Position numbers and translations under genes: made by a program. From Verrucomicrobiota bacterium (GTDB lineage Bacteria > Verrucomicrobiota > Verrucomicrobiia > Limisphaerales > CANJSG01): a DNA stretch of 18,449 nt. Of this stretch, positions 14,865 through 18,449 are shown piece after piece (within the stretch, counting starts at the first letter, position 1; every line of letters begins with the position of its first letter). Below the pieces are notes generated by a model. It worked only from the letters and a program-made list of their open reading frames with translations. It searched no databases and was not told the origin of the DNA. Location of the stretch: contig JBBQXJ010000091.1 of assembly GCA_038209745.1 (NCBI GenBank), positions 1 through 18,449 of the forward strand, in the 5' to 3' direction.

Positions 14865-16190
14865 ATGAAAACCATCCTGAAATCTCTTTGGCTTGGCCTC
14901 TGCGTTCTGGCCCTGCTCGGCTTGCCGGTCTCGGCCCAGAAACTGACGGGGGTGTCTCCCGCAAATTTTTCCACAGGGGTCGGGAAGGACACCACGGTGA
15001 CCTTCACCTTCGACACCGACATGAAGCCGATCCAGGACTTCTCTTGGCTGGCCAACAGCGGCGGATTTCCTTCGCAGATCACGGGCTTTTCCTATGTCTG
15101 GACGACCACGAGAAAACTGGTGGCGACGAAGTCGGGAGGATTTCCCGCCAATACGATGATCATCTGGACCGCGAACGAGGAGGGCTTCGCGGATCAATTG
15201 GGATTCCCCCTTGATTCCAACGGGATGAACAGCGGGTTCTTCACGACCGGAAGCGGATCCGGGGGGGGAGGCGGCGGAGGTGCCGGAGGCGGGGCTGCGG
15301 AGATCAGTTTGTCCAAACTGGCCAACTACGCCCAGACCACCGCCGCCGACCCGGTGCTCGACACCGACCTCGGATATGAGTTCAGCGTCTTCGTGACGGC
15401 ACCGGAGTCCCGCGGGCTGACAAATGTATCGCTGACGATTCCCGGAGGAGCGGTGTCGAACCTCTTTTCCAGCCCGTTCCAGCAGACCAACTTTTTCCTC
15501 CTGTCCTACTCCAACGACCTGGCGGCGGTGGAGGCCAAGTTTCCGCCCGGCAACTACGGGGTCGGGTTGCAGGCACCAGGCTCGAACCAGACCGTGGCCG
15601 TGGCCTTCCCCGCCACTCCGATCCCGTCCGCGGTGAAGTTCTCGAACTTCGCCGCAGGGCAGACCGTCGATCCCGCCGCCGATTTCACCCTTCAGTTCAA
15701 CGCCGGCGGGGTCGCCTCGGACTACGTCTTTGTGGGCGTCAACGAGACCGGCTCGGCGTCCACGATCTACAAGTCGCCTGACCCTGCCGAAGCAGGATAC
15801 CTGATCGGGACCTCGACCCACATCGTGCTTCCGGCCGGTTCCCTGGTAGCGGGCAAGACCTACGAGGTCTACCTTGAGCGCTGGATTCCGAGCACGAACA
15901 ACATTGGGGGCAACGCGGTCGTGGTCGGGGTCGGCAGCTTCACCCAAACCTCCCTGAAAACCCTCGGTGGGGTGGTGGCGATGATCGAACTGAGGAACCC
16001 GACGTTCAGCGGTGGCTTCTTCAGCGCCGAAGCGACGGTCACCGCCAACCAGACCTATCACTTCGAGCGTTCGACCGACGCGGCCGCTTGGATCGAGGTT
16101 TCGTCCGCCTTCGCCCTGGCGACCACGCAAACCTTCACCGACCCCGCGGCGACCAACCCCCACGCGATCTACCGCGTCCGGAAAGACTGA
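14865..16190 (+). CDS. Secreted beta-rich protein with an N-terminal Ig-like (Big_5-like) domain, Gly linker and short C-terminal module
   Basis: Signal MKTILKSLWLGLCVLALLGLPVSA; GVSPANFSTGV...VTFTFDTDM; linker GSGSGGGGGGGAGGG; C-terminal YHFERSTD...W...FTDP...YRVR. Confidence 0.85.
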   Translation: MKTILKSLWLGLCVLALLGLPVSAQKLTGVSPANFSTGVGKDTTVTFTFDTDMKPIQDFSWLANSGGFPSQITGFSYVWTTTRKLVATKSGGFPANTMIIWTANEEGFADQLGFPLDSNGMNSGFFTTGSGSGGGGGGGAGGGAAEISLSKLANYAQTTAADPVLDTDLGYEFSVFVTAPESRGLTNVSLTIPGGAVSNLFSSPFQQTNFFLLSYSNDLAAVEAKFPPGNYGVGLQAPGSNQTVAVAFPATPIPSAVKFSNFAAGQTVDPAADFTLQFNAGGVASDYVFVGVNETGSASTIYKSPDPAEAGYLIGTSTHIVLPAGSLVAGKTYEVYLERWIPSTNNIGGNAVVVGVGSFTQTSLKTLGGVVAMIELRNPTFSGGFFSAEATVTANQTYHFERSTDAAAWIEVSSAFALATTQTFTDPAATNPHAIYRVRKD

Positions 16191-16208
16191 CGGACATCAC
16201 TGTCCAAG

Positions 16209-16247
16209 AACCGGCCGGGCGTATGTCGTCCGGCCGGTTTTCTGTTT
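16209..16247 (+). terminator. Intrinsic terminator between the Ig-like gene and the convergent cusA fragment
   Basis: AACCGGCCGGGCG (16209-16221), loop TATGT, CGTCCGGCCGGTT (16227-16239): a 13-bp stem with one G:U pair, then TTCTGTTT. Confidence 0.85.
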
Positions 16248-16663
16248 CACAAGACTCGGGGCGCGACGGTGGTGATGGCTTCGGTGGTCTGCTTCCGCAG
16301 TTCCCGCTCCCGCAGCCAGAGGAAGATCACCGGCGTCACGATGAGGATGTGGACGAGGCTGCTGAGGACGCCGCCGATGACCGGGGTGGCCAAGGGCTTC
16401 ATGACTTCGGCGCCGGCGCGGTGGCTCCACATGATCGGAAGGAGGCTGGCGATGGTGGTGGCGACGGTCATCACCTTGGGACGGAGACGGAGCTTGGCGC
16501 CGTCTTTCACCGCTTGGAGGAGATCGGCGGCGTTGAAGGCGCCGCCGCGTTCGGCCTTCTTCTTCTCCACCATTTCCTCCAGGAAGATGACCATGACCAC
16601 GCCGGTCTGGATGGCGATGCCGAAGAGCGCGATGTAGCCGACCCAGACCGCGACGCTGAAGTT
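16247..16663 (-). pseudogene. cusA: 3' fragment (138 codons) of a CusA/CzcA heavy-metal RND efflux permease, 5'-truncated
   Basis: [28 protein letters not shown]...[12 protein letters not shown]...[23 protein letters not shown]. In-frame TAG at 16678-16676 just upstream. Intact members are about 1000 aa. Confidence 0.92.
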
Positions 16664-16699
16664 GTCAATAGCTGACTATTGAACTGTCCGTTTGTATTT
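16663..16699. repeat. Palindromic junction site, copy A of a 28-bp direct repeat
   Basis: TG-TCAATAG-CTGA-CTATTGA-ACTGTCCGTTTGTATTT; 16672-16699 matches 17341-17368 at 25/28. Confidence 0.8.
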
Positions 16700-16747
16700 G
16701 TTTTCCCTCATTCCAGTGAGCCTGCGCCTGCAGCGATCGGGTCTGCT

Positions 16748-17068
16748 CCCGGCGGTCTTGAGCATCGTCCGCACGGTCTTGAGTATCGTCCGCAGGGATT
16801 GGACGACCTTCCGCAGGGATTGGACGGTCGTCCGCAAGGCGCGGACGATCTTCCGCGAGGAGGGGACGGTCTTCCGCAAGGAGGGGACGGTCTTCCGCAA
16901 GGCGCCGACGGTCGTCGGCAAGGCGCCGACGGTCTTCCGCAAGGCGCGGACGGTCGTCGGCAAGGCGCGGACGGTCTTCCGAAAGGAGGGGACGATCGTC
17001 CGAGGGAGGGGACGATCTTCCGCAAGGCGCGGACGGTCGTCGGCAAGGCGCGGACGGTCGTCGGCAAG
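16748..17068. repeat. 21-bp tandem array: 15 units (one is 20 bp) plus a partial unit
   Basis: Consensus CCGCAAGGCGCGGACGGTC(G/T)T. Units start at 16748, 16769, 16790 ... 16979, 17000 (20 bp), 17020, 17041. Confidence 0.95.
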
Positions 17069-17235
17069 CCGCTCAGACAGATCCGCGTCCGGATGGGCCC
17101 TCTTCCCGTGGCTCTTTTCTACATTTCCAGAGTATTGGAACGCCTACGTCCCCGCCGCGCTCCTCCCGCGCCTCCACGCCTTTGAGCTGATGATGGCCCC
17201 GGTGGCCGCCGTCACACCAGCAAGACACCTTGGTC

Positions 17236-17319
17236 GGTGCCGTTTCGGCACCTGTCCGGATAGGAACTGGTGCGGGACGATCTCCCGACAGGTTGAAAGC
17301 GGCGACACCCGGTCCCACA
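17236..17319. repeat. Degenerate REP/REPIN-like inverted repeat
   Basis: ACCTGTCCGGA (17250-17260) pairs with TCCCGACAGGT (17283-17293) at 10/11; hairpin GGTGCCG-TTT-CGGCACC at 17236-17252. Confidence 0.4.
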
Positions 17320-17340
17320 AAGTCCTCTGCGGAAGACATT

Positions 17341-17368
17341 CTGACTATTGACCTGTCCCTTTGGATTT
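17341..17368. repeat. Copy B of the 28-bp direct repeat (lacks the left palindrome arm)
   Basis: CTGACTATTGACCTGTCCCTTTGGATTT versus copy A CTGACTATTGAACTGTCCGTTTGTATTT. Confidence 0.8.
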
Positions 17369-17406
17369 TTCTGGCTGCTTTTGCCCGCAAACTGACACTT
17401 GAAGCT

Positions 17407-17445
17407 GTCATAGATGTCATAGGCATAGGCTACGACATCTATGAC
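17407..17445. repeat. 39-bp hairpin with perfect 12-bp arms
   Basis: GTCATAGATGTC-ATAGGCATAGGCTAC-GACATCTATGAC. Confidence 0.85.
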
Positions 17446-17542
17446 TCGAAGGAGGGTCGGCGGGACCATGCAGGAAACGGATTGCAGCCGACGTCTGTTC
17501 GGATCATGCATCCGTCCGACAAAGCGGAAACGGTCGCAGCCA

Positions 17543-18448
17543 TCACCGAAAGCGAACCGGGCGCCGAGAGTGAAAGAACCTCCCAAGGCGTCCTTGGTTG
17601 ACCGGGACAGCGCCACGAGGCGGGCAAGGCGTTTGGCTGTTCAGTCTGACGTAGGCGAACTTTCCTCCCCCACCGGGAGCGTTCATAAGCCGAGAAGCTG
17701 CTTCCGCATCATTTTCGTTGGCACCCCGCGTGCCTTGGTTGGCGTGTCGAGTTCTATTTTGGCTCGCGGGAATGGTTGGAACCGAATAGCCGGGTCTAGC
17801 AGTGTATGATCGTCCGGTTGAGATCTTGCTAGCTTTGTCCATCAGTTTTGTTTCGACCCTGCGAATAAAGTCTTCGTCACTCATGTTAATCGTATCAGCT
17901 CTGGCTGTAAGACTCACCACCGTCTTTTTCCCGTCTGGCTCGTCAACAATGTGGTCAATTGCCTCATAGCCCGTAGCGTTCGCACCAATAGTTTGCTCGA
18001 AAAGTGGACCTCCATCCACGTCGTAGGAGGCTTGGGTATTTGCCAAAGTCTTCTGAATTGATGATTCGAGAAATCCAAGACCGGCATCGGTTAGAATCAG
18101 CCCAGCCTGTAGTCCAGCCAAAGCGGCTTCAACCTTCCATAGGTTCTGCTGAATTCTCAAAACCGTGAGGCCAACGCGGTAATACGCCGGCGCATATCGG
18201 GTCGCCACATTGATGGCCCGCAAACTGAACTGCATCGCGGCCACCGAGATTGTTTGGATTAAGTCAGCGTTTCCGCTGGGGTCGATCCGGTTGAAGGGAT
18301 CCCCCTGACAATAGAGGTATTTGTGGAGGGACGCCGGGTCGGAGGTGTTGCCCTCGTAGGAGTCCATGGAGAGGAAGCGGCCGGTCTTGGGGAGGTAGTA
18401 GCGGGCGCGGTTGTAGTAGAGGCCGAGGTCGGCGTCCCATTCCTCGCC
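17543..18448 (-). CDS. C-terminal end of an RHS repeat-associated core protein (polymorphic toxin); starts beyond the window
   Basis: GEEWDADLGLYYNRARYYLPKTGRFLSMDSYEG...SLHKYLYCQGDPFNRIDPSGN is the Rhs core with the PxxxxDPxG motif, followed by a ~240-aa variable tip. Confidence 0.93.
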   Translation of the reverse strand, partial: GEEWDADLGLYYNRARYYLPKTGRFLSMDSYEGNTSDPASLHKYLYCQGDPFNRIDPSGNADLIQTISVAAMQFSLRAINVATRYAPAYYRVGLTVLRIQQNLWKVEAALAGLQAGLILTDAGLGFLESSIQKTLANTQASYDVDGGPLFEQTIGANATGYEAIDHIVDEPDGKKTVVSLTARADTINMSDEDFIRRVETKLMDKASKISTGRSYTARPGYSVPTIPASQNRTRHANQGTRGANENDAEAASRLMNAPGGGGKFAYVRLNSQTPCPPRGAVPVNQGRLGRFFHSRRPVRFR

Positions 18449-18449
18449 G

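Follow-up and report, generated by a model that had tools for sequence, protein, structure and literature searches.

The window analyzed here is the whole of an 18,449-bp contig (C91) from G000, a 4.58-Mb soil/sediment Verrucomicrobiota MAG with 140 contigs and 63% G+C. Up to about position 16190 it is filled by native, housekeeping-type genes, among them sodA, nadA and a sodium:solute symporter gene. The opposite end holds the C-terminal part of an Rhs gene, and the features in between are collected in Table 1. The Rhs neighbor, already noticed in an earlier sequence-only reading of this DNA, is real, as the match to TIGR03696 demonstrates. Behind the Rhs gene, copied fragments form a 2-kb patchwork, not a series of ordered toxin/immunity cassettes. 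An Rfam search (E≤1) of positions 15500-18449 returned only two weak matches at chance level, none of them at the repeats discussed below.

Table 1. Position, strand and description of the features toward the Rhs end of the window.
Feature	Position	Strand	Description
Copied 3' part of a CusA/CzcA-type RND gene	16293..16665	-	373 bp, 98.9% identity (4 mismatches) to G000:C33:41435-41807; sharp at both ends
Palindrome TCAATAG-CTGA-CTATTGA	16664..16681	.	Made by 8 extra bases left of copy A
Repeat copy A, family F	16672..16699	+	28 bp; 2 mismatches to the family 20-mer at 16675-16694
21-bp tandem array	16753..17068	.	About 13 units, 84% matches; nowhere else in the genome
Copied non-coding region	17061..17336	-	277 bp, 90% identity to G000:C29:50679-50955, which precedes a 935-aa gene; 5 bp between its end and copy B
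Repeat copy B, family F	17341..17368	+	18-mer identical to the family consensus
Palindrome with 16-nt arms (GTCATAGATGTCATAG / CTACGACATCTATGAC)	17407..17445	.	Same type as IS66-family terminal palindromes
Multi-copy segment	17517..17759	-	About 250 bp, 75-87% identity to C23, C102, C33, C16 and C110; overlaps the Rhs 3' end
Rhs C-terminal part: core end and variable tip	17543..18448	-	TIGR03696, E 2.5e-16; frame open at the contig end

To the left of copy A is a frame of the CusA/CzcA-type RND transporters (NCBIfam TIGR00914, E 5.8e-31), with a match to positions 913-1020 of the 1021 positions of Pfam ACR_tran (E 2.4e-22). RND homology ends at 16665, where the intact paralog reads ...GAAGTTGTA (Y-N-F) and the window ...GAAGTTGTC. 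The frame (16247-16672) is a copied fragment of the intact RND gene on C33, not a broken resident gene. The claim that a cusA gene is cut at the repeat therefore holds insofar as the homology stops sharply at 16665, but no cusA gene was cut, as the piece is a 373-bp duplicate of an intact gene. A search for the supposedly missing 5' part found the intact source gene on C33 instead, and since cusA is uninterrupted, no 5' part is expected beside another copy of the repeat. A retro-copy origin was considered and discarded, because the 3' end of the piece is a sharp break within the C-terminal tail of the source gene and not a transcript end. A second, degenerate RND fragment at C100:14517-14771 (profile positions 803-887, one stop codon) is unrelated and adjoins what appears by eye to be an IS21-like remnant.

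The 669-bp interval defined by the two repeats consists of the copied upstream non-coding region and the 21-bp tandem array. It contains no intact gene and, like the rest of the patchwork, is not a gene cassette; the proposal of a 669-bp cargo unit is thus not borne out. Many array units contain GGGGACGGTC, which by eye is one indel away from GGGACAGGTC of the repeat core on the opposite strand.

To the right of copy B, the palindrome at 17407-17445 is a solo IS-end fragment of a multi-copy IS66-family element, which also ends many contigs of the assembly (C20, C21, C26, C30, C43, C70, C96 and C24). The multi-copy segment of about 250 bp that follows is found at no fewer than six loci. Its copy at C23:304-554 contains a small intact frame preceded by a good ribosome-binding site (MAYVRLNKPTLCPSRG...); the window copy has a frameshift and is fused with the Rhs frame. 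In contigs from other sequencing runs, this segment is connected to the Rhs core end through different intervening sequence, so that the variable Rhs tip may have a conserved stretch on either side.

A dispersed family of short repeats

The 28-bp pattern that had drawn attention to the locus has exactly two matches in the window, both on the forward strand, and none in 200 shuffled sequences. A repeat search recovered the same pair (89% identity, 669 bp spacing), and the two repeats are accordingly genuine. They belong to a family, here called F, with the 20-mer ACTATTGACCTGTCCCTTTG as its core and about 20 copies in G000. An 18-mer search of this genome gave 17 matches with at most two mismatches, compared with none for the reversed control. 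Two further matches with three mismatches carry the CTTTGTATT extension and were counted as members; 19 others with three or four mismatches are without the extension and were dismissed as chance. One indel variant lies at C45:29877.

For an ungapped alignment, 30 copies were used, 19 from G000 and 11 from related MAGs. The 20-mer is strongly conserved, the flanks less so, and the sequences are unrelated beyond about 32-36 bp. The F repeats are therefore short (about 32-36 bp) and mostly non-palindromic. The palindrome described for copy A exists as such, with a folding energy of -5.2 kcal/mol (z -3.15) for the single strand; copy B gives no hairpin (z 0.03 versus shuffles). Outside copy A, the palindromic extension is present only at C127:639, so that its left arm occurs in 2 of the 30 aligned copies. 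The hairpin is thus not a family feature, as an interpretation of the repeats as hairpin sites would have it, and the suggestion that copy B is a recombined half-site becomes unnecessary. A 21-bp array is likewise found about 85 nt from the C127:639 copy, with a sequence unrelated to that of the array in the window.

With at most two mismatches, the 20-mer is found 18, 3, 7, 6 and 3 times in G000, G001, G004, G005 and G006, respectively, and not at all in G002 and G003, so that four of the six other genomes of the genus are positive. At this threshold it is absent from all 34 genomes searched in other families of the order. The exact 20-mer is present in three further Verrucomicrobiota MAGs. 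Further copies in the genome and its relatives, which the sequence-only reading had left to be looked for, thus do exist, as a dispersed family.

Most copies in G000 are single. Exceptions are three direct pairs, spaced by 669 bp (C91, the window), 689 bp (C24) and 535 bp (C23), and one inverted doublet on C122, in which two copies face each other at a distance of 39 bp and would form a hairpin of -27.8 kcal/mol (z -8.95). The intervals bounded by the direct pairs have nothing in common except F itself. That of C23 contains an Rhs YD fragment. In the C24 pair (C24:54263-55093, locus L053), the enclosed interval is low in GC and contains a HEAT-like ORF of 127 aa and a fragment that by eye resembles HNH; the whole has a 46-bp direct duplication on both sides, and its neighbors are a cupin gene and a BNR-repeat gene. 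In several copies (L026, L034, C24:55003, C41 and C85:20001), the CCTTTG end of F and adjoining bases are part of short tandem duplications (10-17 nt). The possibility that F is a conserved coding end (..YKGTGQ*, ..QRDRSIV.., ..TKGQVNSQ..) was rejected, as the ORFs that enter F differ in frame and are mostly spurious at 63% GC. A repeat of about 200 bp at C6:81503-81701 (L001:213-411), with more than 40 copies in the genome at 74-88% identity, is unrelated to F.

A RAYT-like transposase gene with a repeat copy upstream

Contig C23 of G000 contains a 325-aa frame with a match to Pfam Y1_Tnp (E 2.1e-12). An F copy immediately precedes this frame, and the GGACAGG of the repeat is 30 nt before the gene match. 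G006 encodes a full-length ortholog (79% identity), and here the distance from GGACAGG to the gene match is 57 nt. At the G001 locus the gene is reduced to a stub of its initial 15 codons, beyond which the resemblance stops, and 43 nt separate this stub from the end of the motif core. The G004 copy has the same 90-nt flank as that of G001. An F copy is thus found 30-57 nt upstream of the gene or its stub in four genomes of the genus. The G001 locus (L032, 172-1425), in which the gene is cut off after 15 codons, also contains an opposite-strand frame of 339 aa that looks tyrosine integrase-like by eye. Copy A, read on the minus strand (GGACAG..TCAATAGTCAG), has the same orientation as the F copy upstream of the transposase gene.

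The Y1_Tnp matches (E 2.1e-12 and 5.4e-11) are better than the Pfam cut-off. The best NCBIfam model is the REP-associated tyrosine transposase (NF047646, E about 1e-16 to 2e-16), although the score of 60-62 bits is below the curated cut-off (80 bits). Four aligned homologs all retain the HUH motif (NHFH) and the tyrosine of AAYIDLNPVRAGL. A conserved C-terminal extension also aligns in these four, and Pfam gave no HTH match at E≤0.1. The G000 gene has about 12 N-terminal codons fewer than that of G006. As set out below, the gene resembles those of the RAYT-like TIRYT transposases, and we use this name for it. The sequence-only reading had postulated att-like or HUH-type sites acted on by an enzyme encoded elsewhere, and the C23 gene with its adjacent F copy fits the HUH variant of this expectation.

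It is the only gene of its type in G000. Of three other Y1_Tnp matches in this genome, two (C137 and C12) sit in 154-aa open frames and represent ordinary IS200-like genes. At E≤1e-20, no full-length TIRYT match was found in G001, G004 and G005 despite the presence of F in these genomes, which are 85-93% complete. A phmmer comparison of the protein with PDB sequences found no RAYT match. Downstream of the gene, neither G000:C23 nor G006:C553 has an inverted CCTGTCC-type partner of the upstream copy, and the gene is therefore not TIR-flanked in this genus.

Among 41 genomes searched, homologs with 34-48% identity are present in 7 other genomes, in some of them in several copies, and in other families they form multi-copy units of about 1.1 kb. 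In 7 of 13 inspected loci, the motif (G/T)GACAGG(C/T)T occurs within 260 nt upstream in the orientation of the gene, and in one more locus it is inverted. Inverted motif copies were also seen downstream of the homologs in both genomes checked for them (G025 and G034). Three paralogs in G034 share only the gene and about 100 bp on each side, and their homology starts at the motif. The related motif GGTGACAGGYTC, which is often clustered, has 359, 36 and 6 copies in G025, G026 and G034, and none in controls.

Membership in one family, restriction to the genus, a fixed place and orientation upstream of the gene, and a related motif at homologs in other families together argue that F is likely the lineage-specific cognate DNA site family of this TIRYT-type (RAYT-like, Y1/HUH) tyrosine transposase.

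Breakpoints at the repeats and competing explanations

For 7 of 19 copies, the point at which homology to the rest of the genome stops is a few bases at most from an F edge, compared with 1-3 of 19 at ten control offsets. This agrees with the earlier suggestion that the sites are linked to gene-content breakpoints, with an enrichment that is only about threefold and occurs in regions that are mosaic anyway. In G004, one of two tested copies had a breakpoint at the F edge. The coincidence of F with breakpoints hints at transposase-linked rearrangement.

Individual loci illustrate the pattern. On C127, F follows a heptad-repeat gene that lacks its 3' end (a full copy is present on C54) and precedes 80 bp of an IS5-like transposase gene in antisense orientation. 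Such (APVKANN)n genes, with 7-residue repeats encoded by 21-bp DNA repeats, are found at C54:32155-32632, C127:139-567, C14:69890-70105 and C44:131-226. On C37, the flank of F is a 95% copy of C80. Rhs YD-repeat coding sequence directly follows F at C23:572, at C85:20001 and at two G004 loci, and the flank of the variant at C45:29877 starts in the same way. An enrichment of F beside Rhs core ends is not supported, as only one of the three core ends in the assembly, that of the window, has F nearby. In contigs of four runs, the F edge at 17363-17370 is connected to at least five different joining points in the multi-copy segment and the Rhs end (joints in X2, X3 and X16), which probably represent paralogous loci.

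At none of these breakpoint copies do both flanks match a single continuous paralog, so F was not seen as a clean insertion. A search for empty sites across the genus at three loci (C24, C79 and C6) gave no filled/empty pair, and conservation ended hundreds of bp before F, because all three loci sit in strain-specific DNA. These loci thus give no sign of mobility of F itself.

If F is the cognate site, the TIRYT enzyme would be expected to bind or nick single-stranded DNA at or beside it. F sites would then spread, and some flanking fragments become joined, either by action of the enzyme or by breakage and repair at the sites, and the resulting copies would survive in the dispensable DNA behind the Rhs gene. 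Nicking and joining by the enzyme may have made the seams, and it might also put together cargo units and toxin modules, as the sequence-only reading had suggested. A more specific version, in which the enzyme nicks and rejoins single-stranded DNA at F and captures pieces of resident genes by mis-joining to build the mosaics behind Rhs genes, appears unlikely to us. The captured pieces would be the RND-pump piece of 373 bp (98.9% identical to its source), the Rhs core pieces, the IS5-like piece and the promoter region.

Other origins of the repeats and their seams were weighed against the cognate-site reading. The MAG is split into 140 contigs and F is close to many contig ends, as might be expected if the junctions were assembly chimeras. 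Logan contigs nevertheless bridge the 16665 junction (run X16, record 12, covering 16615-16733) and copy B (run X1, record 6, covering 17016-17626); a third contig (X1, record 2) covers 16189-16343, and X1 may be the source sample of the assembly. In all, the stretch is present in 20 runs from 19 studies. As the joints are bridged in contigs of other public runs, they are not chimeras as far as contigs tell. F copies moreover differ from one another in sequence, and the motif recurs in MAGs of four isolate-name prefixes (VAR, GL, GFS and ELB series), which leaves chimeras with a negligible probability. F might instead be an att-like site, as the sequence-only reading had it, such that F-bounded segments excise as circles, integrate at other F copies and build arrays of toxin, immunity and cargo genes. 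The three direct pairs would be compatible with such a system, in particular the C24 pair with its low-GC segment, HEAT-like small ORF and flanking 46-bp duplication, and the C23 pair with its Rhs YD fragment. Yet the interval in the window holds no intact gene, the F-bounded intervals share only F, most copies are single and one pair is inverted, and the only recombinase linked to F is the TIRYT protein. A joint that skips the 669-bp interval was absent from the contigs of four runs, a result that is uninformative either way, as contigs drop rare or circular forms. We regard an att-like system as quite improbable. The pair in the window is two F sites in a patchwork, not the two ends of one cassette.

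A comparably low probability applies to F as the end of, or preferred target for, some other mobile element, with the TIRYT gene merely beside a target. Contig ends consisting of multi-copy repeats are indeed no more than about 1 kb away from most copies, an IS66-type end palindrome is located 39-48 nt from F in the window and in G001 (48 nt in G001, L032), and short tandem duplications adjoin CCTTTG in several copies. The neighboring repeats vary in distance and side from copy to copy, however, and neither the start of homology at the motif itself among the G034 paralogs nor the association of related motifs with TIRYT homologs across families would be expected if the gene were a bystander. 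Several loci have F in one orientation ahead of reading frames, and its purine-rich tail is Shine-Dalgarno-like in some copies (for example, GTCAGGAAGGAG in G006), so a regulatory element (promoter, operator or ribosome-binding leader) common to the transposase gene and some others was also considered. We judge it highly improbable, given that a sigma-70 scan of 16000-17700 found no promoter-like site, that many copies precede 5'-truncated or antisense fragments such as the IS5-like piece on C127, that the related motif forms hundreds of clustered copies in G025, and that the C24 genes run in the opposite direction.

Under the cognate-site reading, a repeat family tied to one TIRYT gene marks the seams of recently copied fragments, one of them 98.9% identical to its source. 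Candidate substrates for a first biochemical test are the top and bottom strands of F and the hairpin variant of copy A, and junction points are predicted as well.

Comparison with known systems

Like integron attC cassettes and the capture systems of IS91/ISCR elements and Helitrons, F places short conserved sites between unrelated segments. F nevertheless lacks attC structure, its consensus forms no hairpin, and no integrase gene was seen beside the G000 copies in ORF lists inspected by eye. The judgment of the sequence-only reading that the sites fit neither attC nor CRISPR architecture is thus upheld. Helitrons and ISCR elements share with the present case an HUH enzyme associated with capture of neighboring gene fragments, but here the enzyme is of the small Y1 type, not a Y2 or Rep-helicase protein, and capture is a proposal. 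If true, capture by F and its TIRYT enzyme would be a bacterial counterpart of Helitron- or ISCR-type fragment capture, performed by a small Y1 enzyme.

With IS200/IS605 elements, the system shares the Y1 HUH catalytic core, and the homologs in other families, as multi-copy units of about 1.1 kb, resemble minimal insertion sequences. It differs by the absence of subterminal hairpins at F and by a protein of about 325-340 aa with an insertion and an extension, compared with the 154-aa frames of the IS200-like genes of G000 (C137 and C12).

REP/REPIN-RAYT systems were reportedly treated by Nunvar in 2010 and Ton-Hoang in 2012. As in these systems (see also Bertels & Rainey, 2011), a single-copy HUH gene lies beside its own dispersed, lineage-specific short repeat, and the one inverted F doublet forms a long hairpin, as a REPIN does. 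Unlike REP sequences, F has neither an internal palindrome nor a GTAG tag and occurs in about 20 copies rather than hundreds, and the gene scores under the NCBIfam RAYT equivalog cut-off (60-62 versus 80 bits).

The closest parallels are with TIRtrons, in which RAYT-like TIRYT genes lie between terminal inverted repeats with GGGGWSAS in common, in place of REP hairpins; some of these repeats form moderately abundant families with single, dimeric or grouped members, as far as the TIRtron sections of that work describe them (Di Nocera, De Gregorio & Rocco, 2013, PMC3733652). A later classification equates most TIRYTs with TnpA-Y1 subclass 2.1, which has a C-terminal HTH (Quentin et al., 2018, PMC6006769). 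The passages devoted to TIRYT-type transposases in these two papers describe them from sequence alone and report nothing on their action on DNA. RAYT group 1 is described as having flanking 16-mers in about 12 copies in the corresponding part of a further survey (Bertels et al., 2017, PMC5581495).

Measured against these descriptions, the genus studied here has an upstream copy only, without an inverted partner downstream (flanking of the TIR type was met in the G025 and G034 homologs), its F copies lie at seams of duplicated gene fragments, and, in contrast to the subclass 2.1 proteins as described, no HTH or Bac_DnaA_C-like domain was detected by Pfam. The resemblances are a RAYT-like Y1/HUH gene accompanied by a non-hairpin repeat with a GGGGWSAS-like word, a moderately abundant repeat that occurs as singles, one dimer and groups, and a protein with a long conserved C-terminal extension. 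F carries AGGGACAG and its relatives GGTGACAG, each identical to the consensus of PMC3733652 at 7 of 8 positions. With this word and about 20 copies, F fits the TIRtron/TIRYT class as outlined in these sources, with the caveats of the absent downstream partner and the absent Pfam HTH, and judged by sequence the F repeats and the C23 gene appear to be a new example of this known class.
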